The position numbers and the translations under genes were made by a program. A stretch of DNA of 64,000 bases, from positions 1-64,000 of IMG/VR virus record IMGVR_UViG_3300023082_000010. One strand, written 5' to 3'. The DNA comes from a virus. Shown one piece after another: positions 4,141-47,898 of the stretch. How positions within the stretch are numbered: the first letter of the stretch is position 1; every line of letters begins with the position of its first letter. Below the pieces are notes generated by a model. It saw only the letters and a list, made by a program, of their open reading frames with translations. It made no database searches and had not been told where the DNA came from.

Positions 4141-5379
4141 TCAATCATTTGTAAGCCAGTCCTGAAAGAGCTTACGCATACGTTTTGACAAAATGCAAAT
4201 CTTAATTGGCTTTCCGTCACGAATTTGTGAACGCCATACAAATTGTACAAGCTCAGACAATGCAAACTGATTATTGTCAACATCCACACCATAATCTTGT
4301 AGGAATGAGGAAACAGAAACATGAGTAAAACGGTTATAAGCATGCACCAATACAGAACGATCACGATAAGCGTTTGTTGCTCTTGCTGTACAGGCTAGGA
4401 AGCATCCTTGTGCAATACCATCCTCATCAATCTCGCCATCTCCTGCACTATATCCTCTAGGTGAAACCTTTCTTGCACCTGAACGTGTCTGGTTAACAAG
4501 TGTAGACGGTACACACCAAACAAGATCAGTATTCTTAGCTTTGTTAGCATCACCAATAGCACGAATAGATTTACCAATAGCTGTCAAATCTTTCTGTGTA
4601 GCTTTTGAATACCAACTAGACGATAAAGATTCACCAGCCCACTCTTTAACTTGCTTATCTCCAACAAATTCAATCAAAGGAAAAAGGTTCGATTTACTCT
4701 GTTCATTAAGCTTTACCTCTGTAAAGTCAACAACTTCAACCCCTTTAAGTTTAAGGAATGAAGACATAATACTGCCTTTAAAAAGGTAAGTAAGAACAAT
4801 AACTCTTTCTGCTGAATGTATCAAACCAATAGGCAACTGAGTAACAAACATACTATCACTGCGTTTAGCCTGATAAATCATTCCAAGCTTACACATATTC
4901 GCAAGTTTAGTGTATTTAGCACCATCTTTAATCTCATCATTAAGCCAAACTAAACATCCATCTTCTTCAACCCTAATCTGTTTCAAATCTTTAAGGTAAT
5001 CAAAGTCAGACTTAGTGTAACCAGCATTCAGAGGTTCAATAAAACTTACTTCTTCATCAAGTATAAGTGTATATTTGTTTTGTTTAATCCAAAAAAGATG
5101 TGGTTGTTTAAGACTTGAATAAAGAGAGTGTGTAATACTAATATTAACACCAGACTGTAACAAGTCTAGTAAGTGCTCGCCCTTAGTGTCGAACTCTTCT
5201 GTACTAGGTGCAATGAATTTAGATTGAACACAAAAAGCTACAACCCTACCTTCACTCTCACTTAACAAAGGAGTAACATAAATGAATGGAGTAGTAGGGT
5301 TCGCTTCACACCACTTAAGAATAGAAGTAGTTTTACCACTACCCATTAGCTTATCTAAAACCTCAATCTTAAAGGTCAT
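4141..5379 (-). CDS. SF2/DEAD-like helicase-type P-loop ATPase, copy 1 (paralog of 27518-28756)
   Basis: Walker A MGSGKTT, motif Ia IYVTP, Walker B LILDEE, C-terminal ELVQFVWRSQIR. Confidence 0.75.
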   Translation of the reverse strand: MTFKIEVLDKLMGSGKTTSILKWCEANPTTPFIYVTPLLSESEGRVVAFCVQSKFIAPSTEEFDTKGEHLLDLLQSGVNISITHSLYSSLKQPHLFWIKQNKYTLILDEEVSFIEPLNAGYTKSDFDYLKDLKQIRVEEDGCLVWLNDEIKDGAKYTKLANMCKLGMIYQAKRSDSMFVTQLPIGLIHSAERVIVLTYLFKGSIMSSFLKLKGVEVVDFTEVKLNEQSKSNLFPLIEFVGDKQVKEWAGESLSSSWYSKATQKDLTAIGKSIRAIGDANKAKNTDLVWCVPSTLVNQTRSGARKVSPRGYSAGDGEIDEDGIAQGCFLACTARATNAYRDRSVLVHAYNRFTHVSVSSFLQDYGVDVDNNQFALSELVQFVWRSQIRDGKPIKICILSKRMRKLFQDWLTND

Positions 5380-5421
5380 ATTTTTTAAAAACCTCTCTTT
5401 CTTAGATACTTCTTTTCTTTA

Positions 5422-5466
5422 AGGACTGAAACACACAAACCCTTATAAATCAAGGGTTGTAGAGGT
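5422..5466 (-). promoter_or_regulatory. palindromic cis element beside helicase-like copy 1
   Basis: ACCTCTACAA-CCCTTG-N5-TAAGGG-TTTGTGTGTTTCAGTCCT; homologous to 28784-28827. Confidence 0.55.
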
Positions 5467-5475
5467 GTTTTACAA

Positions 5476-5664
5476 TCATTTCTCGACAGTGTTAGTCGAG
5501 TCTAAATTAAACATATCTAAGTAGCTATGGAAAGTGTTTATGTAATCTTCGTATGTTTCATGGTCAATCCATTCCCAATTACCTTTAGGATATTCATAAC
5601 CAACAGAAAGACATTTTTTATCACCTTTATATTCTTGAAATTGCTGTTTTGTGTAAGCAGCCAT
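5476..5664 (-). CDS. hypothetical protein
   Basis: 62-aa ORF coupled to the upstream stop. Confidence 0.55.
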   Translation of the reverse strand: MAAYTKQQFQEYKGDKKCLSVGYEYPKGNWEWIDHETYEDYINTFHSYLDMFNLDSTNTVEK

Positions 5665-13530: not shown

Positions 13531-13593
13531 AATAAAAGCTTGATTTATAAAATTAGGTTTGTTATTATTCTAAAGAGGAGCGTGTTAATAAAA

Positions 13594-14118
13594 ATGAAAA
13601 TTTTAGATGTAGAGTTTTTAAAAGATAGATTTGATTATGATCCTGAAACTGGTAAACTATTTTGGAAAGAAATTAATCAAATAAATACAAATCTTAGAAG
13701 AAGTCAGTTCGCTGGAAAAGAAGCTGGTTATGAGTATCAAGGTTATATTTATGTCCGAATCGGGAAAAGTAACTATTTATCACATAGGATTTGTTATGCC
13801 ATTTACAACGAGGAATTTCCAAAAGGTATTATAGATCATATTGATGGTAATAAGAAAAATAATAAAATTGAAAACTTAAGGGTTTGCACTCCGGCAGAGA
13901 ATGCTAAAAACGCAAAAAGATATTTGACTAATAAATCAGGAATAACAGGAGTTAGGTGGGATAAAAAAGATAACGCGTGGAGAGTTCAAATAGGTAGCAA
14001 TGATGGAAAAGTGCAAAAATCTTTTCATGATTTCTTTGAGGCTTGTTGCTTTAGGAAGTCAATGGAATTAAAATTAGAATATTCATTAAATCATGGTACA
14101 GACAGAGAAGGTAAATAA
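13594..14118 (+). CDS. HNH homing endonuclease with AP2-like C-terminal domain
   Basis: HRI...IDHIDGNKKNNKIENLR, then NKSGITGVRW; AT-rich insertion after pol. Confidence 0.85.
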   Translation: MKILDVEFLKDRFDYDPETGKLFWKEINQINTNLRRSQFAGKEAGYEYQGYIYVRIGKSNYLSHRICYAIYNEEFPKGIIDHIDGNKKNNKIENLRVCTPAENAKNAKRYLTNKSGITGVRWDKKDNAWRVQIGSNDGKVQKSFHDFFEACCFRKSMELKLEYSLNHGTDREGK

Positions 14119-15917: not shown

Positions 15918-16874
15918 ATGGCAAAGAAACCAATCTGCGTGATTGACGGAGACCTTTTAGCATTTAAAGCGTCTGCTGCAAATGAAACTCGGGGCATCAT
16001 TGCATTGCACAAACCAAGTAATAGAAGTCGTGCATTCAAACACCGTACAGAGTTTAAAGAATTTATTGGCGAGAAGTTCCCACTTGATGATTTTGATATC
16101 TCAGATACACAAGTGACAGAAGATATCTCTCACGCTTTGTTCACAGTTAAACGAATGATTGAAAGTATTTGTGAGACATGTAAGACTGATAAGTATGAGA
16201 TTTATATCAGTGGAAAGGACAACTTCAGAGATGAGCTACCCTTGCCTCAGAAGTACAAAGGAAACCGTTTAAACCTTGTAAAACCCCTACAACTTAAAGA
16301 AGTTATGGAGTATCTGAAGGGTGTTCACAAGGCTGAAGTGGTGATTGGTGAGGCCGACGATAGAATTTCTATCCGTCAGTATGAGGGGATTAAATCAAAG
16401 ACTAAAGTGATTGGTTGTTCGACAGATAAAGATAGTATGGGCACTGACGGTTGGGTTTACAACTGGGATAAGATGTCAGAACCAATGCTTGTGAAAGGAC
16501 TAGGTGATCTGTACATTGATGAGAAGAATAAAGTCAGAGGCCATGGAAGTAAGTGGAAATATCTTCAGTGGCTTGTGGGTGATTCTATTGATGGTCTAAA
16601 TCCTTGCTATCTTGCTGGTGTTAAGTTTGGTGAAAAGGCTGGTTACAAGATTCTCAAAGATCTAACAACAGAGCAAGAGTGCTGGCAAGCAGTTCACGAC
16701 ACTTACAAGTCTTGGTATCCGGTTGAGGTGGAGTATGTAGATCAATGTGGTCGACCTCAAGTTGCGGACTACTTGAAGCTTGCACAAGTGTATTGGGATG
16801 GTATTCACATGTTGAGGTTTGAGGGTGACTTTGTAGATGTGCGTGAAGTTATGTTGAAGATGGGGATTGTATGA
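15918..16874 (+). CDS. 5'-3' exonuclease (T7 gp6/FEN-like)
   Basis: IDGDLLAF, NFR, YKGNR, EADD, DKD and GDSIDG motifs. Confidence 0.88.
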   Translation: MAKKPICVIDGDLLAFKASAANETRGIIALHKPSNRSRAFKHRTEFKEFIGEKFPLDDFDISDTQVTEDISHALFTVKRMIESICETCKTDKYEIYISGKDNFRDELPLPQKYKGNRLNLVKPLQLKEVMEYLKGVHKAEVVIGEADDRISIRQYEGIKSKTKVIGCSTDKDSMGTDGWVYNWDKMSEPMLVKGLGDLYIDEKNKVRGHGSKWKYLQWLVGDSIDGLNPCYLAGVKFGEKAGYKILKDLTTEQECWQAVHDTYKSWYPVEVEYVDQCGRPQVADYLKLAQVYWDGIHMLRFEGDFVDVREVMLKMGIV

Positions 16875-17392
16875 AAGAGCCTTGGAAACAAAGCCCTGAT
16901 GTGTGGCCCACGAAGTCTAGCTTTTTCACTTGGCTGAGGGGCGCACTTAGGAAATCCATTTGGCAATTCTACCCTCCAAAGATGCAGTTTAAGAATGAAG
17001 GATGTTCTAAGCCACCAGAAGATTACAAAGGACGTGCTAAGTCTGGAGCCTATTGTGAACTTACTGGTGAGTGGACTGGGAAGTCTTTGTTGGAAGTAGA
17101 TCACCGCATTGGTAATGTAAAGTTCACCGAGTGGGAAGATGTCCTACCTTTCATTCTGCATCTGTGTTGTGATAAAGATGAAATGGCCTTGGTTAATAAA
17201 GAGGCACATAAAATCAAGAGTTATGCTGAGAGAATGGGGATTACTTTTGAAGAGGCAGTTATTCAAAAAGAAATTATTGCAATCTGCAAGTCGAAGAAGG
17301 ATAGCATTTGGCTTAGAGAACATGGTATTATCCCAGCCTCTACAGCCGCTAAAAGACGAAAACAGATAGAGGAGTATATGAAGAATGAGTGA
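16871..17392 (+). CDS. putative HNH-type endonuclease of the replication module
   Basis: WLRGALRK...YCELTG...LEVDH...H.IKS; directly follows the exonuclease. Confidence 0.6.
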   Translation: MKEPWKQSPDVWPTKSSFFTWLRGALRKSIWQFYPPKMQFKNEGCSKPPEDYKGRAKSGAYCELTGEWTGKSLLEVDHRIGNVKFTEWEDVLPFILHLCCDKDEMALVNKEAHKIKSYAERMGITFEEAVIQKEIIAICKSKKDSIWLREHGIIPASTAAKRRKQIEEYMKNE

Positions 17393-18877: not shown

Positions 18878-19942
18878 ATGGTCTATTATTTGGCAAGTCC
18901 GTATAGCGTAGATGCTGATTACGAGCTGATGAGACTTCGTTATAAATGTGTCATGAAAAAGACAGCAGAACTTACACGGGAAGGTTTTGCAGTTTTTAGC
19001 CCCATTGTAAATTCACATATATTGTCAACTCGTTACGCCATGCCTACCACTTTTGATTTTTGGGCGAAGATTGATTACGAATTTATCGCTGTCTGTTCTG
19101 AGGTTTGGGTGTATAAGATGGACGGATGGGAAGATTCAGTAGGCGTGCAAAAGGAAATAGAGTATGCACAAAGCTTAGGAAAGACAGTAAAATATATTGA
19201 GTGCGAAGATAGTCCTCCAGCGAGAGCATATAAAGCCCGTATGAAAGACATTTCAAAAAGTAAGCCTTTGTATGGTGTTGGTATCAACGATGTTTGGTAC
19301 AGCCCCACCCAAGTTAAGAGAGTTTCAGAAGGAAGGGGGCAAGGGTGCTTTAAAGCAATTTGGCACTGTATAGTCTATCAACGCTGGGCAAATACCTTGA
19401 AACGGTGCTATGATGAGAAAAATCTTTTACTGGCGCCGAGCTATGAGGGTTGCACCATGGTTGAAGAGTGGCATTCATTTAGTAATTTTAAAGCTTGGCA
19501 TGATATTAATTTTGTCCCAGAATGGCACTTGGATAAAGATATCCTGAAGGATAATAACAAGATATACGGCCCTGACAGTTGCGTATTCGTTCCCGTCTAT
19601 TTGAATCAAATACTGGCGGTAAATACATCAGGTAAATGCTTGCCCGGAGTTAACAAAAGAGTTGAAAAGTGGAGAACAAAGCCTTACCATGTATCCCATG
19701 AGTTTGGCTCCATTGTAAAACGTAAAGATTTCGCTACAGAAGAAGAAGCCCACGGTTGGTGGTGTGAACAACGCGCAGAATCAATTCGTTGGAAGCTGCG
19801 TAAATATAACCTCGATGAGCGTGGAATGCATAAAGAAACTGTTACAGAAAGGCTTGAAGCTTTAGCAAAAAGATTGGTAGAATTGAAATCTTGGGACAAA
19901 GCATATAATTACAGCGAAAACATTGCAGACAAAGTGGCTTAG
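18878..19942 (+). CDS. DUF1937 (nucleoside deoxyribosyltransferase-like) domain fused to an HNH-type homing endonuclease
   Basis: N-terminus YLASPYS...VFSPIV.SH...GWEDSVGVQKEI.YA; C-terminus LYGVGIND...RCY...LDKDIL...YGPDSC.FVP. Confidence 0.75.
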   Translation: MVYYLASPYSVDADYELMRLRYKCVMKKTAELTREGFAVFSPIVNSHILSTRYAMPTTFDFWAKIDYEFIAVCSEVWVYKMDGWEDSVGVQKEIEYAQSLGKTVKYIECEDSPPARAYKARMKDISKSKPLYGVGINDVWYSPTQVKRVSEGRGQGCFKAIWHCIVYQRWANTLKRCYDEKNLLLAPSYEGCTMVEEWHSFSNFKAWHDINFVPEWHLDKDILKDNNKIYGPDSCVFVPVYLNQILAVNTSGKCLPGVNKRVEKWRTKPYHVSHEFGSIVKRKDFATEEEAHGWWCEQRAESIRWKLRKYNLDERGMHKETVTERLEALAKRLVELKSWDKAYNYSENIADKVA

Positions 19943-21816: not shown

Positions 21817-22554
21817 ATGAAAGTTGGCGACATCTACACCAATAAGTTCGGAGAAACATTTAAAGTGGTGGAGAAAACCACCAGTAAAAATGTCGTCGTA
21901 GAGTTTTGTGATGCGTATAAAGGCAGGACAACTACTCAAAAAGTACATATTCTCAGGGGCGCTGTTAGGAACCCTTTTGCTAGAAACTTATACGGTGTAG
22001 GTTATCTTGGACAAACAACAAAAGACAAATCACCAACAAGTAACCCTGAATATATTCGAGCTTACAGTGCTTGGTGTGGTATTATGGAAAGGTGTTACAA
22101 TAAAAATTTCCAAGAAATTCATCCCTCTTACGTAGGTTGTTATGTAAAAGAAACTTGGCATTGTTTCATGGTATTTGCCGAATGGTATATTGAGAATTCA
22201 ATTCTGAATTGGGATTTAGATAAAGATATTTTAGTAGTGGGTAACCGTGAGTATGGTCCTGAGACTTGTTTGTTTCTACCGCGTCACATTAATAATCTTT
22301 TTCACAAAAATGAGGGTCATAAGGAATCTGAATTGCCTGTAGGTGTTACACTCGCAAAGTCAGGTAAATACAGGGCAAGACTTTCAGAAAAAGGTTTTAG
22401 AAAACATTTAGGATACTATTTTACTCCTGAAGAAGCTCACCAAGTATACCGAGAAGCTAAGGTTGAATATGTACGGAAGGTTGCTTTTGATCATAAAGAA
22501 AATCTTCACCCTAAAGCATTTGAATTGTTAAGTAATTGGAGTTATATTGAATGA
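21817..22554 (+). CDS. HNH-type homing endonuclease
   Basis: LYGVGYLG, W..IM.RCY, LDKDIL..GN..YGPETC.FLP, AP2-like C-terminus. Confidence 0.8.
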   Translation: MKVGDIYTNKFGETFKVVEKTTSKNVVVEFCDAYKGRTTTQKVHILRGAVRNPFARNLYGVGYLGQTTKDKSPTSNPEYIRAYSAWCGIMERCYNKNFQEIHPSYVGCYVKETWHCFMVFAEWYIENSILNWDLDKDILVVGNREYGPETCLFLPRHINNLFHKNEGHKESELPVGVTLAKSGKYRARLSEKGFRKHLGYYFTPEEAHQVYREAKVEYVRKVAFDHKENLHPKAFELLSNWSYIE

Positions 22555-27517: not shown

Positions 27518-28756
27518 ATGAAAACTAAGATTGAACTTCTAGACTCAATCATGGGTAGCGGAAAGACACAAGGTGTAATTCAGTGGATGCTTAATAACCC
27601 ACAGAATAAATACTTGTACGTCTCACCAATGCTTACAGAAGTAGAACAAAGGATTCCTGAAGCTTGTCGCTCTCTAGAGTTTGTATACCCTTGCACAGAA
27701 GAATATAAAACCAAAGGAGAACACCTTCTAAAGTTGTTAGAAGAAGGCTGTAATGTTTCTTTTACACACTCCCTGTTCACTGATTTGACAAAGAAACATC
27801 TTGCACTAATCAAGAAACATGAATATATTCTTATTGTGGATGAGGAAGTTGCTCTGATAGAGCCATACAAAGGTATTTATGATCGTGATGATATTCTGTC
27901 TCTTGAGAAAGCTGGACACATTAAAGTGTTAGAAAATGACCTTGGTCGTGTAGAGTGGCTTTGGTATAATGATGATGAGATGAACAAGACTGTATACAGC
28001 AAGCTTAAACGTATGTGTGATTTAGGTATGCTGTATTGTGCTAAACGTGATCGTAAGATTATGGTTGTGCATCTTCCTATTGAGCTTGTGCAGTCTTCAA
28101 GACGTGTTGTACTTCTTACATACTTGTTTGAAGGTTCTGTTATGGAAGCCTTTATGAAACTTAAAGGTATTGATATAGTTCCATTTAAGGATGTAAAACC
28201 TATTAAAGAAACAAAAGATGTGCTTGCTAAGGCTAAAAGCCTGATTACATTTATTGATACACCATCTAGTAAGGCTGTAGCTAAACTTTCTATGTCTGCT
28301 ACTTGGTATGCAAAGAATGCCTCAGCAACAGATTTAGAAAAGATTAAGAATGCTCTTTTCTCTGTTTATAGGAAATATGGAGATAAAGATTTATTTTTGT
28401 TTACAGCACCTAAAACACAAGCTTGTTTGGAATACATAAAGAAAGAAGATATCACAAGGCACATCTTGCATAAGAATCTACCTAAAGATTTAGACTGGAT
28501 TTATTGTGGAACTAAAGCAACTAACATCTGGGCACATAAAACTATAGCTGTACATGCTTACAATAGGTATGTAAATACAGCTATTAAAGCATATTTACAA
28601 GATTATGGTACACCACCAAATGATGATAAATTTGCGTTGTCTGAGATGGTACAGTGGATATATAGAACACAAATCAGGAATGATAAACCAATATCTTTGT
28701 GTATTATGAGTGCTAGAATGAAGAAGCTTTTATGTAATTGGTTAGATAGTAAATAG
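27518..28756 (+). CDS. SF2/DEAD-like helicase-type P-loop ATPase, copy 2 (paralog of 4141-5379)
   Basis: Walker A MGSGKTQ, LYVSP, Walker B LIVDEE, C-terminal EMVQWIYRTQIR. Confidence 0.75.
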   Translation: MKTKIELLDSIMGSGKTQGVIQWMLNNPQNKYLYVSPMLTEVEQRIPEACRSLEFVYPCTEEYKTKGEHLLKLLEEGCNVSFTHSLFTDLTKKHLALIKKHEYILIVDEEVALIEPYKGIYDRDDILSLEKAGHIKVLENDLGRVEWLWYNDDEMNKTVYSKLKRMCDLGMLYCAKRDRKIMVVHLPIELVQSSRRVVLLTYLFEGSVMEAFMKLKGIDIVPFKDVKPIKETKDVLAKAKSLITFIDTPSSKAVAKLSMSATWYAKNASATDLEKIKNALFSVYRKYGDKDLFLFTAPKTQACLEYIKKEDITRHILHKNLPKDLDWIYCGTKATNIWAHKTIAVHAYNRYVNTAIKAYLQDYGTPPNDDKFALSEMVQWIYRTQIRNDKPISLCIMSARMKKLLCNWLDSK

Positions 28757-28783
28757 TTAGTGTTTTAGATTTTCAAACAGTGG

Positions 28784-28827
28784 ACCTCTGTAAGCTACGT
28801 ATTCCGTGGCCTGTAGGTTTATATCCT
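28784..28827 (+). promoter_or_regulatory. palindromic cis element beside helicase-like copy 2
   Basis: ACCTCTGTAA-GCTACG-N5-CGTGGC-CTGTAGGTTTATATCCT; homologous to 5422-5466. Confidence 0.55.
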
Positions 28828-28857
28828 ATAATGCTAGAAAGCTTAATTTTAGACACA

Positions 28858-28887
28858 GAAAAGCCCCGACCGTAAGGAAGGGGCTAA
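28858..28887 (-). terminator. terminator at the convergence of the replication and late arms
   Basis: AGCCCC...GGGGCT stem followed by a U-tract on the minus strand. Confidence 0.65.
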
Positions 28888-28911: not shown

Positions 28912-29466
28912 TTATTGTCTTGCTGTAGTGATAGCACCAAAACTATTGTTATTAATATTAGTGTTTATTACTTTTGTTCCATTCTTTTTATCTTGTTGCA
29001 ACCCTTCAACTCTTTGTTCTAAAACACTAACTCTTGCACTTAATCTGTTGTCAACAATGTCTAACTTCTCATCAAGTTTGTTGGCCTTACTTTCAAAGTA
29101 GGATAAATTCTTGTCGATAACAGAATCATTATGAGGAAGAGCACTTGCTACTATTTGTGCTGGTGTATTAGCATTAACAATAGGTGCAGGATCTTTCTGA
29201 TATAGCTCATATAATTTGTCAAGTCTTTGAGCATACAACTGAGCACGGGCCTCTCTCAGTTGCTGATACCTATTAAGATTGTCTTCTACTATTTTAATCT
29301 TACCTTCGTAGTTCTTTTTCTCAACATCAAATCTATCTTGCACTTGTCTTTGAAAGTCTTCTAGAGCCGTGTTAGCAGATTGTTTAGTTGTGATTGTAAT
29401 TATTAAAACTAAAGCTAGGACTATAATTATTGCATGTGAGAGTCCCTTCAACACTTTCAAAAACAT
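28912..29466 (-). CDS. membrane-anchored coiled-coil protein of the lysis region
   Basis: N-terminal TM segment then long heptad-rich stretches. Confidence 0.6.
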   Translation of the reverse strand: MFLKVLKGLSHAIIIVLALVLIITITTKQSANTALEDFQRQVQDRFDVEKKNYEGKIKIVEDNLNRYQQLREARAQLYAQRLDKLYELYQKDPAPIVNANTPAQIVASALPHNDSVIDKNLSYFESKANKLDEKLDIVDNRLSARVSVLEQRVEGLQQDKKNGTKVINTNINNNSFGAITTARQ

Positions 29467-31492: not shown

Positions 31493-32100
31493 ATGAAGTT
31501 AGTTTATGGTGTGGGTATAAATGATGCTGATTACACCCTCAGTAAATATGAAAAATTTGTCAGCGCGGAGGGCTTATTGAAGGTTCGTCAGGTATGGGTT
31601 TGTCCTTTTTATTCGAGATGGCAATCCATGATTACTCGCTGTTACAGTAAGAATTTTCTTATAGAGAATCCATCCTACAAAGATTGTACCGTCTGTGAGG
31701 AATGGTTAACTTTTAGTAAATTTAAATCTTGGATGGAGACGCAGAATTGGAGTGGTAAGACCCTTGATAAAGATATATTGTGTAAAGGCAATAAAATTTA
31801 CTCTCCCGAATTTTGTGTTTTTGTTCATGCCAAAGTAAATCTTTTTATCATTGAACGTGAGAGTAAACGTGGTGAATGGCCTATTGGTGTTCACTTTGAA
31901 GAGAGCTACCAAAAGTATAAATCCACAATAACTTCTAACAATAAGACTGTAAACTTAGGTAGGTATGATACAGCTGAGCAAGCCCATCAAGCTTGGTTGG
32001 ACTTTAAGCTTGATGGGCTTATATACTAGCTTCAGAGCAAGAAGACGATAGGGTAGCTAAAGCTCTCGTAGAAAGGTACAAAAATTATTCTCGCACATAA
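31493..32100 (+). pseudogene. HNH-type homing endonuclease, antisense in the lysis cassette, frameshifted near the C-terminus
   Basis: LVYGVGINDA...RCY...LDKDIL..GNKIYSPE; the ORF stops at 32029 but a plausible tail AYILASEQEDDRVAKALVERYKNY continues in another frame to 32100. Confidence 0.7.
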
Positions 32101-45832: not shown

Positions 45833-47116
45833 TTATACAGAAAGGAAGCCATTTACGATGACTTTGCGAATGGACCCGGCCAGACGTGCCCGGAATACGA
45901 AAACACCAGCTGTACGAGCAGCACGAAGTGTTACTGGGATGTCCAATACATCAGGTGTAGTTACAGTCCAACCACGAGCAATCAAGCCATTAGCTTCTGC
46001 TTGAGAGAGTACGGAACGAATTTCATTTTCAATGATAACCAAACCTTGGTTTGTCATTGGGATTTTCAAAGTGTTGATCAGGCGGAAGTAGATTTGCTCT
46101 TGCAGACGAGCATAAAGCCAGTCCACTCCAATCGTTTCGTCAATCGGTGTACCATCAAACATGTTACCATCTTGCATCACGTTGACACCACCAACAGCGG
46201 TGTACATGTTCATGTTCTTGGCACGAAGATTTGCACGAGCAGTGTCGCTAATGTTGCTGACAGTTACGCCAGATACACGTTTGAAATCCCAGTCGTTGCT
46301 GCCCGGAGTATAGGCAAGTTGAGCCCCCATCCAAGCTGCTTCAGGGTACTCAGTGTCGGCAGTAGGCAGATAGACGCCATAGGTGCGAGACGCGCTAGCA
46401 GCACTCAAAACAGCGGCAATATCGGTTGTTCCTGTGGTGATTACAGCAGGGTCTTGACTAGATGTACCGAAGATTTTACGGCGACTTGCAACAGCATTAC
46501 TAAGAGCTACCACCTCAGCTTGAACATGGGTATCAGCAACTACTGCATACCAAGTGTTGTTAACTTGAGCAACGGCGTCCAAAGCATCAGCCATAGCTTC
46601 AGTTGACGCAACGTTGGTCTGAGTAAGGTTTGAGCTGCCAGTTACGCTCCAGTTGGAACCGGGAGTGGTTGGTGCCACAGTGAGGCTAGTTGTACCAGAA
46701 AGAGTAATGCCTGCTGGTGTACCAATTGCAGCTTTCAAGCCAGTAACGATGCTAGTGGCAGTAGCACCAGTCCCAGAAGTGAAGGTGTACGGAACACCAT
46801 TGACTGTGACAGTGTAGACAGTTGCATCTGCTACAGTTGGCACCAGTGTAGCACTATCAATCTGGCGACGACCAATTACGATACTTGGTGGGACAGCGCC
46901 AACAGCGCTTTGACCAAATTCTTTCTGAGCGATGATGTAAGCTTTGTCGGTAGCATTAAAGTCTTCTGCAACAGCATCCATGTCACCATAGACACGGGCA
47001 CGTTCAGGGAAATTAGTGAAGGATGCCAGAATCAGGGGGATATTGAAACTAGCTGTGCTAACAGCGGTACTCTCCCGGCTAATCGTAATTTGTACTACGT
47101 TATCAATCTCACTCAT
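45833..47116 (-). CDS. tail sheath protein (DUF3383-like)
   Basis: V.ITISRE......F...LI, W.FK..SGV, IDE..G.DWL, KIP.T..G, A.LAG.I..V.VNG. Confidence 0.9.
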   Translation of the reverse strand: MSEIDNVVQITISRESTAVSTASFNIPLILASFTNFPERARVYGDMDAVAEDFNATDKAYIIAQKEFGQSAVGAVPPSIVIGRRQIDSATLVPTVADATVYTVTVNGVPYTFTSGTGATATSIVTGLKAAIGTPAGITLSGTTSLTVAPTTPGSNWSVTGSSNLTQTNVASTEAMADALDAVAQVNNTWYAVVADTHVQAEVVALSNAVASRRKIFGTSSQDPAVITTGTTDIAAVLSAASASRTYGVYLPTADTEYPEAAWMGAQLAYTPGSNDWDFKRVSGVTVSNISDTARANLRAKNMNMYTAVGGVNVMQDGNMFDGTPIDETIGVDWLYARLQEQIYFRLINTLKIPMTNQGLVIIENEIRSVLSQAEANGLIARGWTVTTPDVLDIPVTLRAARTAGVFVFRARLAGSIRKVIVNGFLSV

Positions 47117-47898
47117 TGGTAAGGCCTCTTGCTGATTTCATAAGAATATTCATAGGTAAATCCTTCTTTGTTTTCATTTAAATTGTTAGAGATTTTACTT
47201 CTAGAAATACCTGTCTGTTTTGAGGCGCTTAGTATGGAGTCATAAACAATATTATCTATTTTAAACTTCCACTTACCAACTCTAGAATTCTTATTTTTAA
47301 TGCTTATATCTTCTTCTACCAAACCTAGTGATATATGGAGATATAAAAGCTCGGGATCTTCATTTAAAGCTTCTGCTGCTTCTCGTAAAGTATTAAACCA
47401 AATACCTCTTACATACTGAGGAGCATCATATACAGACCCTTTTCTTGGATTAGATACTTCACCTAATATCCCTTGCCTTTTTCTGTTATGGAAGGTTACA
47501 GCAGCCATGCCAAGAGAAGCTAAGGCCACTCTTCTATTAGGAAACCAGAAACCTGATACAAATACTGGTTCATCATCAGACCTAGATGCAACTTTATGGC
47601 CTGTTCCACCAGCACCACCCGGCTTGATGTTGTAACCATTTTCCACTGTATTAAAAGCTGAAATGGCTTTTACTTCTAGATCATAAATATATTCTTTTGA
47701 GCCAACACATAACACATCAAAACTGAAATTCTCCGGGCCGTATTTATTTACAGCCTTTTTAATGATTGAATTTTTATTTTGATTAGGGTTGTAGAAGTGT
47801 TGTTTCTTTCGTGCGCTTAAGTTCTTAGTAACACCAATGTATAGCTTTCCATTTACCAAATTCGTAATCTTATAAAGATAGTGAACAATTTCTTTCAT
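47113..47898 (-). CDS. GIY-YIG homing endonuclease
   Basis: HYLYKITN.VNGK.YIG.T.N...R...H...GYN...GG; NUMOD-like C-terminal repeats; AT-rich. Confidence 0.85.
   Translation of the reverse strand: MKEIVHYLYKITNLVNGKLYIGVTKNLSARKKQHFYNPNQNKNSIIKKAVNKYGPENFSFDVLCVGSKEYIYDLEVKAISAFNTVENGYNIKPGGAGGTGHKVASRSDDEPVFVSGFWFPNRRVALASLGMAAVTFHNRKRQGILGEVSNPRKGSVYDAPQYVRGIWFNTLREAAEALNEDPELLYLHISLGLVEEDISIKNKNSRVGKWKFKIDNIVYDSILSASKQTGISRSKISNNLNENKEGFTYEYSYEISKRPYQ

Follow-up and report, generated by a model that had tools for sequence, protein, structure and literature searches.

A dyad-symmetric intergenic motif that accompanies helicase-like and polymerase-like phage genes, with a possible role as a protein-binding site

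Two short palindromic elements lie next to two related genes in a phage genome, and the question that they raise is whether it is the ability to form a hairpin or the sequence itself that is conserved. The window analysed here covers the first 64 kb of one phage contig, 92,420 bp long, from a leaf-litter metagenome. Each element (E1 and E2) adjoins a gene for a 412-residue helicase-like protein. The original prediction took the two for homologous hairpins with compensatory changes in their arms, i.e., for a structure selected as RNA, single-stranded DNA or cruciform, in which the arms are free to vary provided that they pair. The elements had been read correctly: the reverse complement of positions 5422-5466 and the plus strand of positions 28784-28827 agree exactly with the text given for E1 and E2, the two are on opposite strands with 23.3 kb between them, and the six arm-pair changes listed between their 6-bp arms check out. 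The features at the two loci are the following.

4141-5379, minus strand: helicase-like paralog 1, 412 aa, family phrog_2467, with Walker A GSGKT, a DEE box and a C-terminal Q..R..IR
5406-5470, minus strand: full E1 element, with left flank ACCTCTACAA, the dyad and a 3′ box TCCTTAAAG at 5417-5425 (sequence and profile matches)
5438-5458, minus strand: E1 inner inverted repeat AACCCTT(G)-ATTTA-(T)AAGGGTT, arm type A/A′ (flagged in a terminator-like scan, 8 pairs)
5476-5664, minus strand: small ORF, 62 aa, with its stop codon 9 nt ahead of E1
27518-28756, plus strand: helicase-like paralog 2, 412 aa, phrog_2467
28783-28846, plus strand: full E2 element, with left flank ACCTCTGTAA, the dyad, right flank CTGTAGG and a 3′ box TCCTATAAT at 28824-28832 (sequence and profile matches)
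28794-28810, plus strand: E2 inner inverted repeat GCTACG-TATTC-CGTGGC, arm type B/B′, with one T.G (sequence)
28863-28884, minus strand: GC-rich hairpin followed by a T-run, the terminator of convergent lysis-side genes (sequence)

E1 is positioned 43-87 nt 5′ of the ATG (position 5379) of paralog 1. Since the stop codon of the 62-aa ORF lies 9 nt before it, E1 constitutes an intercistronic spacer in a run of minus-strand genes. The small ORFs 5′ of the two paralogs were considered as homologous partners of each other and dismissed (E 0.18). A second small hairpin, CTCGAC-TAACACT-GTCGAG, is present on the minus strand at 5482-5500, at the extreme end of the 62-aa ORF and just 5′ of E1; the relative G1 has one uncompensated mismatch in it. 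E2 starts 28 nt past the stop codon (28754-28756) of paralog 2, and the terminator is located between E2 and the minus-strand gene at 28912-29466 and is kept in the relatives G2 and L029. The 3′ box of E2 includes a perfect TATAAT (28827-28832) that faces the convergent terminator with no gene after it, and a transcript starting there would be at most roughly 50-70 nt. Among Logan contigs from leaf-litter metagenomes, one spans E1 unbroken, with no joint or loose end at this place, which is as much as contigs can tell, as they cannot show inversion, nicks or ends.

The description of the neighbouring genes as helicase-like paralogs is borne out. The two 412-aa proteins are 40% identical (E 3e-109), and the AlphaFold model (pLDDT 90) has an SF2 helicase fold with two RecA-like domains, Walker A, a DExx box and the motif VI arginines. 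Foldseek matched this model to XPD (TM 0.53) and also to RecQ/WRN, Hel308 and PriA (probability 1.0). K16, D108 and E109 together with Q379, R383 and R387 are invariant. By modeled fold and motifs, the proteins are SF2 helicase-like, with unwinding as a predicted activity only. They belong to phrog_2467, an uncharacterised family that has SPbeta YonV as a member; the literature on yonV contained nothing relevant, and a sequence search of Pfam and the PDB gave no match for either these proteins or the polymerase-like protein discussed below. In the relative G2 (IMG/VR 3300023082_000001), a single helicase-like gene (46354-47583, loci L006/L016) that is 75% identical to paralog 1 occupies the locus and has the orientation of paralog 2; the shared terminator follows directly after it, and there is no motif on either side.

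Are E1 and E2 at all related? Their raw identity is about 25 of 45 columns, and the literal 19-base pattern derived in the original prediction has four matches in IMG/VR, which are unrelated, neither hairpin-like nor near a homolog, and correspond to the chance level. Both numbers would be in line with a chance likeness of two AT-rich hairpins, an explanation whose probability we consider negligible. It is refuted by a leave-out profile that was built from 25 elements of other phages, none of them orthologous to the elements of this genome. On the 92-kb genome, this profile finds four sites only (E 1.8e-6, 9e-5, 2.6e-4 and 4e-4; next best 0.31), all of which adjoin a phrog_2467 or a phrog_4756 gene, and the association with these two gene families holds over 41 genomes. 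E1 (E 1.8e-6) and E2 (E 4e-4) are both recovered, in agreement with the predicted homology and with the expectation that equally good matches should not be scattered through the genome. The other scores are E 5e-11 (nhmmer, 5467-5406) and 4.4e-8 (sequence-only model R1) for E1, and 5.6e-9 and 4.3e-6, respectively, for E2. Moreover, E1 and E2 are the only places in the 92,420-bp genome with the 3′ half-pattern TGTNNGTTTNNNTCCT. Judged from the alignments, the literal pattern is too strict and the family has a looser consensus. The remaining two sites and their genes are situated beyond the window (genome coordinates).

66,225-67,583 (L095:2225-3583), minus strand: polymerase-like gene, 452 aa, phrog_4756, with the motifs DYSAIH, R..AK and YHDS
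about 67,667-67,701 (L095:3667-3701): E4, 5′ of the polymerase-like gene (motif match)
81394-82701 (L096:1394-2701), plus strand: third helicase-like paralog, 435 aa, 27% identical to the other two
82,738-82,790 (L096:2738-2790): E3, about 40 nt past the stop of the third paralog (profile from eight hand-aligned elements)

The motif is roughly 33 bp long and its layout is CTnnAG, an arm CCCTTR or GCCACG, five AT-rich bases, an arm YAAGGG or CGTGGC, and CTGTAG(AGG). The helicase-linked copies have an extra CCCTTA-like box about 13 nt downstream. The profile from eight hand-aligned elements detected the motif beside homologs in many IMG/VR phages. Enrichment near homologs of the helicase-like gene, which had been proposed as a check, is seen: 18 of 60 such loci in IMG/VR carry the motif, and here it is either 5′ of the gene, ending 48-53 nt ahead of the start codon, or 3′ of it, beginning 24-46 nt (in one case 133) past the stop codon, with no matches elsewhere in these loci of 4.2 kb. 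Likewise, the motif is present in 16 of 31 polymerase-like loci, 49-127 nt upstream of the gene. A sequence-only model run over 41 related genomes returned 44 distinct sites. They are spread over 27 genomes with about 1-4 copies in each, and 37 of the 44 are within about 300 nt of an end of a phrog_2467 or phrog_4756 gene. The clear exceptions to the gene-end location are at the head of gene-poor stretches. Some helicase genes (in G2, G014 and G015) lack the motif. Among cultured phages, Vibrio phage vB_VhaM_VH-8 (MN497415.1) is a carrier with an E1-like element at L002:1362-1428, and Psychrobacter phage D'Alembert (OV696620.1) is a carrier with a weak element. Compared with GenBank phages by megablast, the region itself had no match.

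In the following, arms are referred to as type A (CCCTTG, right arm CAAGGG) or type B (GCCACG, right arm CGTGGC). E1 is A-A′ and E2 is B-B′, and the pair therefore looks compensatory: the two differ at five of the six arm pairs and both still pair. Selection for a hairpin would also be in keeping with the finding that all copies are in transcribed-looking intergenic DNA in gene-sense orientation, that E1, L046, G5b and L136 fold well (z −3.5 to −5.9), and that, if G.U is allowed, the A-B′ hybrids lose no more than one inner pair. With more sequences, this interpretation becomes very unlikely. All four arm combinations exist; the helicase-linked elements comprise 7 AA′, 8 AB′/AC′, 4 BA′ and 2 BB′ (Fisher p 0.64), and left and right arm types assort independently. 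The polymerase-linked elements are nearly all A-B′. Nor are the arms paralog specific, as had been suggested, since genes of the copy-1 type are found with AA′, BA′ and AB′ and those of the copy-2 type with BB′, AB′ and AA′. Pairing was evaluated over 34 elements and a 14-pair dyad by shuffling the partners among sequences 500 times, a test that is only approximate because the elements are related by descent. The observed pairing (61.7%) is below that of the shuffled controls (66.0±1.3%), and so is the covariation (0.154 compared with 0.208); in both cases 500 of 500 shuffles reach at least the observed value. The original prediction had itself named non-significant covariation as grounds for abandoning the hairpin inference, which falls by this criterion together with the claim of compensatory change.

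The folding data point in the same direction as the pairing test. Over 36 elements, the folding z ranges from −5.9 to +1.1, with the polymerase-linked elements near 0, and not all members fold better than shuffled sequence. E1 is the best hairpin among the four in the genome (DNA −8.7 kcal/mol, z −3.5; RNA −12.1, z −2.3), E2 reaches only −4.0 kcal/mol as DNA (z −1.2; RNA −14.5, z −2.0), E3 folds weakly (z about −1 to −1.5), and E4 has a positive z and no fold. The B-A′ members are also unfolded, and the polymerase-linked form CCCTTATAAAC-CGTGGC is strongly conserved, yet unfolded (z about 0). Moreover, conservation extends to the loop-flanking and unpaired positions, and a relative's sole change inside E1, T5457C, is one-sided and toward the family consensus. 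In Rfam, the best scores are 11-17 bits against thresholds of 34-95 (E 0.26-9), i.e., without a match. Other structural and sequence candidates were rejected: a conserved RNA structure in the leader of the polymerase gene (consensus −0.57 kcal/mol), pairing of the right arm with the 3′ CCCTTA box (impossible for B′-type arms), and a T4-late-type TATAAATA, IHF or LexA consensus at the centre (inconsistent across members as judged by eye). Good folding (z −3 to −6) is nevertheless seen in several of the helicase-linked copies, and a hairpin or cruciform may have a role in this subset. A general caution follows for similar cases: homologous hairpins with "compensatory" differences can come from reassortment of half-sites and not from structure selection.

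What, then, is conserved? In the true register 61.7% of the positions pair, compared with 32-48% when the partners are slid, which means that a palindromic consensus exists. The invariant or near-invariant columns (alignment A6) are A14/T34, C17/G31 and C18/G30, and together they form the symmetric pattern A..CC-N11-GG..T, that is, an inverted-repeat consensus with symmetric invariant positions, as in a dyad site. In some elements the orientation of the core with respect to the gene is reversed, as in E1 compared with L038 and in E3 compared with E2. On the basis of these alignments, the motif is conserved as a symmetric sequence rather than as a helix. Because it is the symmetric sequence and not the pairing that is conserved, we read E1 and E2, with moderate confidence, as copies of a double-stranded, dyad-symmetric putative protein-binding site that forms a cassette with its gene and moves along with it. 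The motif would act as double-stranded DNA, and a sequence-specific protein, probably a dimer, would read its two half-sites, each of which could be of either type. The site would be tied to the adjoining gene, be it the SF2 helicase-like gene (phrog_2467) or a small gene for a family-A-polymerase/single-subunit-RNAP-like enzyme (phrog_4756). We infer that the site could be read by a common factor of the phage lineage or the host, or by both enzymes through a similar DNA-binding module, and that its leading effect would be common control of the expression of accessory enzyme genes.

Dyad operators of autoregulated mobile genes, e.g., the operators of restriction-modification C proteins and of phage repressors, are among the closest familiar counterparts of such a site. 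Like these, the motif has an inverted-repeat consensus with symmetric invariant bases, its half-sites vary independently, and the site is carried with the gene. It differs from them in that many sites are 3′ of the gene, in that one site type serves two unrelated, independent families, and in the ~16-bp spacing of the half-sites. Several points count against the protein-binding reading: 3′ sites with no downstream gene (E2, L029, L046 and E3) are odd for a transcriptional operator, a consensus scan finds no sigma-70-type promoter overlapping E1-E3, and half-site centres about 16 bp apart are unusual for a simple helix-turn-helix dimer. If the motif is an operator, the accessory nucleic-acid enzymes that it marks would form a small regulon in a lineage whose phages have genomes of about 85-93 kb and a replisome of the T7 type.

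The second gene family bears on the nature of the reader. E4 sits in a conserved 200-nt leader of the 452-aa polymerase-like gene. A promoter-like site, TTGACG-16-TATTCT, lies about 65 nt 5′ of the motif and outside it, which places the motif in the leader. The model of the 452-aa protein (pLDDT 91) has a winged-helix-like N-terminus followed by a family A DNA polymerase fold, to which single-subunit RNAPs are about equally good matches: Z scores are 13.3 for apPol, 12.4 for yeast mtRNAP, 10.7 for T7 RNAP and 7.6 for N4 vRNAP, and the HDS and DYS motifs are present. Up to three polymerase-like paralogs are found per genome in the relatives. The complete genomes G008-G012 have the polymerase-like gene and the motif and lack a helicase-like gene, and conversely the complete genomes G016 and G006 have helicase-like genes and the motif and lack a polymerase-like gene. 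Because the two families thus occur independently with the motif, neither neighbouring protein can be the sole reader; G016 and G006 rule out the winged helix of the polymerase-like protein in this capacity, and G008-G012 rule out the helicase-like protein. There is one weak lead to a module common to both enzymes, in that an insertion in the helicase has a slight local likeness to the winged helix found in the polymerase-like protein (hhalign E 0.017, probability 2.7%).

The protein-binding reading includes the proposition that site and gene travel together. Blocks consisting of gene and motif have 76-90% DNA identity between genomes that otherwise barely align (G1 86%, G3 90%, G5 and G6 76%) and are among the best-conserved DNA between these genomes. 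Their copy number (0-3 and 0-3 for the two families) and location differ from genome to genome, and relatives have one, two or three helicase-like genes at differing loci. Two of four homology blocks stop at, or about 20 nt past, an element (4156-5488 and 81394-82974 in the present genome, the latter at a second degenerate palindrome). We read this as gene and site probably behaving as a cassette that is inherited and exchanged together.

Mobile regulatory cassettes of a comparable kind, the promoter-early stem-loops (PeSLs), have been described in T4-type phages (Arbiol et al. 2010, PMC2839356; Comeau et al. 2014, PMC4122927). PeSLs contain a strong sigma-70 promoter and an effective terminator, and they are numerous and flank many unrelated ORFans (PMC2839356, PMC4122927). 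The motif resembles them as a short, conserved, partly palindromic intergenic sequence that borders non-core genes, is exchanged with its gene among related phages, and in some cases marks the end of a homology block. A cassette of this kind would provide a transcription signal, a terminator-like hairpin with a downstream promoter-like box, at the borders of accessory genes, and its repeats would serve as points of homologous exchange. This explanation is unlikely, although several details agree with it. E1 scores as a weak terminator-like hairpin, passing a lax pattern with 8 pairs (3 GC) and a weak T-run that E2 and E3 do not pass. The 3′ box is a good −10-like hexamer (TATAAT, TATAGT or TATACT) in E2, L027-L030 and L044, the blocks are exchanged between diverged genomes, and arms and cores seem reassorted or flipped among related elements. 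However, E1-E3 have no sigma-70 promoter consisting of −35 and −10, the 3′ box is not −10-like in E1, E3, G1, L035 and L038, and a GC-rich stem with a T-run is missing from most hairpins, the hairpin often not being formed. In addition, the few copies per genome beside two gene families differ from the numerous PeSLs beside many unrelated ORFans.

Integron attC sites and the core sites of recombinases (dif, lox) consist of two inverted arms around a short spacer. The motif is similar to these in that each gene cassette has a single imperfect palindrome, in many cases directly 3′ of the ORF, in the recombinant-like hybrid arm combinations, and in the arms of 12-14 bp around a short centre. It differs from them in having no R″/R′ core sequences and no attC-type structural conservation, in its scattered cassettes and in its 5-nt spacer. 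About 45 ORFs were scanned against Pfam or PHROGs, and these included no gene for an integrase or recombinase, the only related finding being HNH endonucleases; an enzyme of the host could also act here. The uses named in the original prediction, as an origin, a nick site or a recombinase site, are possible alternatives.

Rather than being read as an operator, the site could take part in replication or priming, as a secondary origin or as a loading site at which the adjacent helicase-like ATPase would unwind the DNA or the small polymerase/RNAP-like enzyme, with its winged helix, would begin synthesis, on the model of the promoter-dependent origins of T7 or the hairpin promoters of the N4 virion RNAP. 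Both neighbours are nucleic-acid enzymes (SF2 helicase fold; family A polymerase/RNAP-like fold), and the phage replisome is of the T7 type, being made up of primase-helicase, family A polymerase, gp2.5-like SSB, endonuclease and exonuclease, with no full-size RNAP in the genome. A site on either side of the gene is what is seen with origins. E3, moreover, is at the head of a 1-kb gene-poor stretch, and the homologs in cultured phages adjoin 1.2 kb of gene-free, repeat-rich DNA. We nevertheless consider this role quite improbable. As discussed above, some genomes have the polymerase-like gene only (G008-G012) and others the helicase-like gene only (G016 and G006); since either family occurs with the motif in genomes that lack the other, no fixed enzyme pair acts at it. 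Some helicase genes with no motif, the absence of an AT-rich unwinding tract or iterons at E1 and E2, and a hairpin form that is not conserved also argue against it.

The N4 virion RNAP recognises hairpin promoters with a 5-7-bp stem and a 3-nt loop that are read as an extruded single strand. The motif shares with them a low copy number in each genome, conserved bases in a sequence that is able to form a hairpin, and a protein of T7-like polymerase fold encoded nearby. The differences are the 5-nt loops, the stem, which is not conserved, and the presence of the motif in genomes without the polymerase-like gene. In addition, the phage has no giant virion RNAP, and its largest ORF is 856 aa.

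A related proposal, in our view quite unlikely, is that the dyad is the cis site of an undescribed replication or self-mobility module on which the adjoining enzyme acts in cis, so that gene and site would amount to a secondary origin or priming site that is portable, or to a gene that propagates itself. The enzymes in question would be the SF2 helicase-like ATPase, or a minimal family-A-polymerase/T7-RNAP-like enzyme of about 450 aa with a winged-helix head. If true, this would explain that the cassettes are the best-conserved DNA between diverged genomes. If the motif serves as an origin, or for priming or exchange, it could reveal by what means such enzymes are brought to a particular DNA address or spread together with it.

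Returning to the protein-binding site, the kind of feature is already familiar, i.e., a conserved intergenic dyad that moves with accessory phage genes, whereas the motif family itself and its link to two uncharacterised enzyme families appear to be undescribed. For phrog_2467 and phrog_4756, two widespread and uncharacterised phage families, the motif provides a defined DNA ligand of roughly 33 bp and a genomic signature.

Some observations on the surrounding DNA can be added. The stretch of roughly 1 kb that follows E3 (genome 82800-83700, L096:2800-3700) is without a sizeable ORF, an Rfam match or clear iterons. The second degenerate palindrome mentioned above is located in it, at about 82940-82975, and coincides with the end of the 90%-identity block that this genome has in common with the relative G3. 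In the cultured phages, the gene-free DNA of about 1.2 kb is 5′ of the helicase-like homolog (L001:330-1500 in Psychrobacter phage D'Alembert, L002:300-1460 in Vibrio phage VH-8 and L004:260-1500 in Acinetobacter phage B9). It has short repeated words (of the AGGATAT type in D'Alembert and VH-8) and AT-rich tracts, which give it an origin-like look.

Apart from its replisome, the phage encodes nucleotide metabolism enzymes, myovirus-type structural proteins and at least seven HNH endonucleases, and the genome is heavily colonised by homing-type nucleases.

13540-14118, 16871-17392, 18878-19942, 21817-22554 and 31493-32029: HNH endonuclease genes in the window
73588-74163 and 87328-88215: HNH endonuclease genes beyond the window (at least two)

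One of these, the 354-aa ORF at 18878-19942, matches the nucleoside 2-deoxyribosyltransferase family at residues 1-147 and HNH families at residues 117-336, and is possibly a fusion or read-through of two genes.
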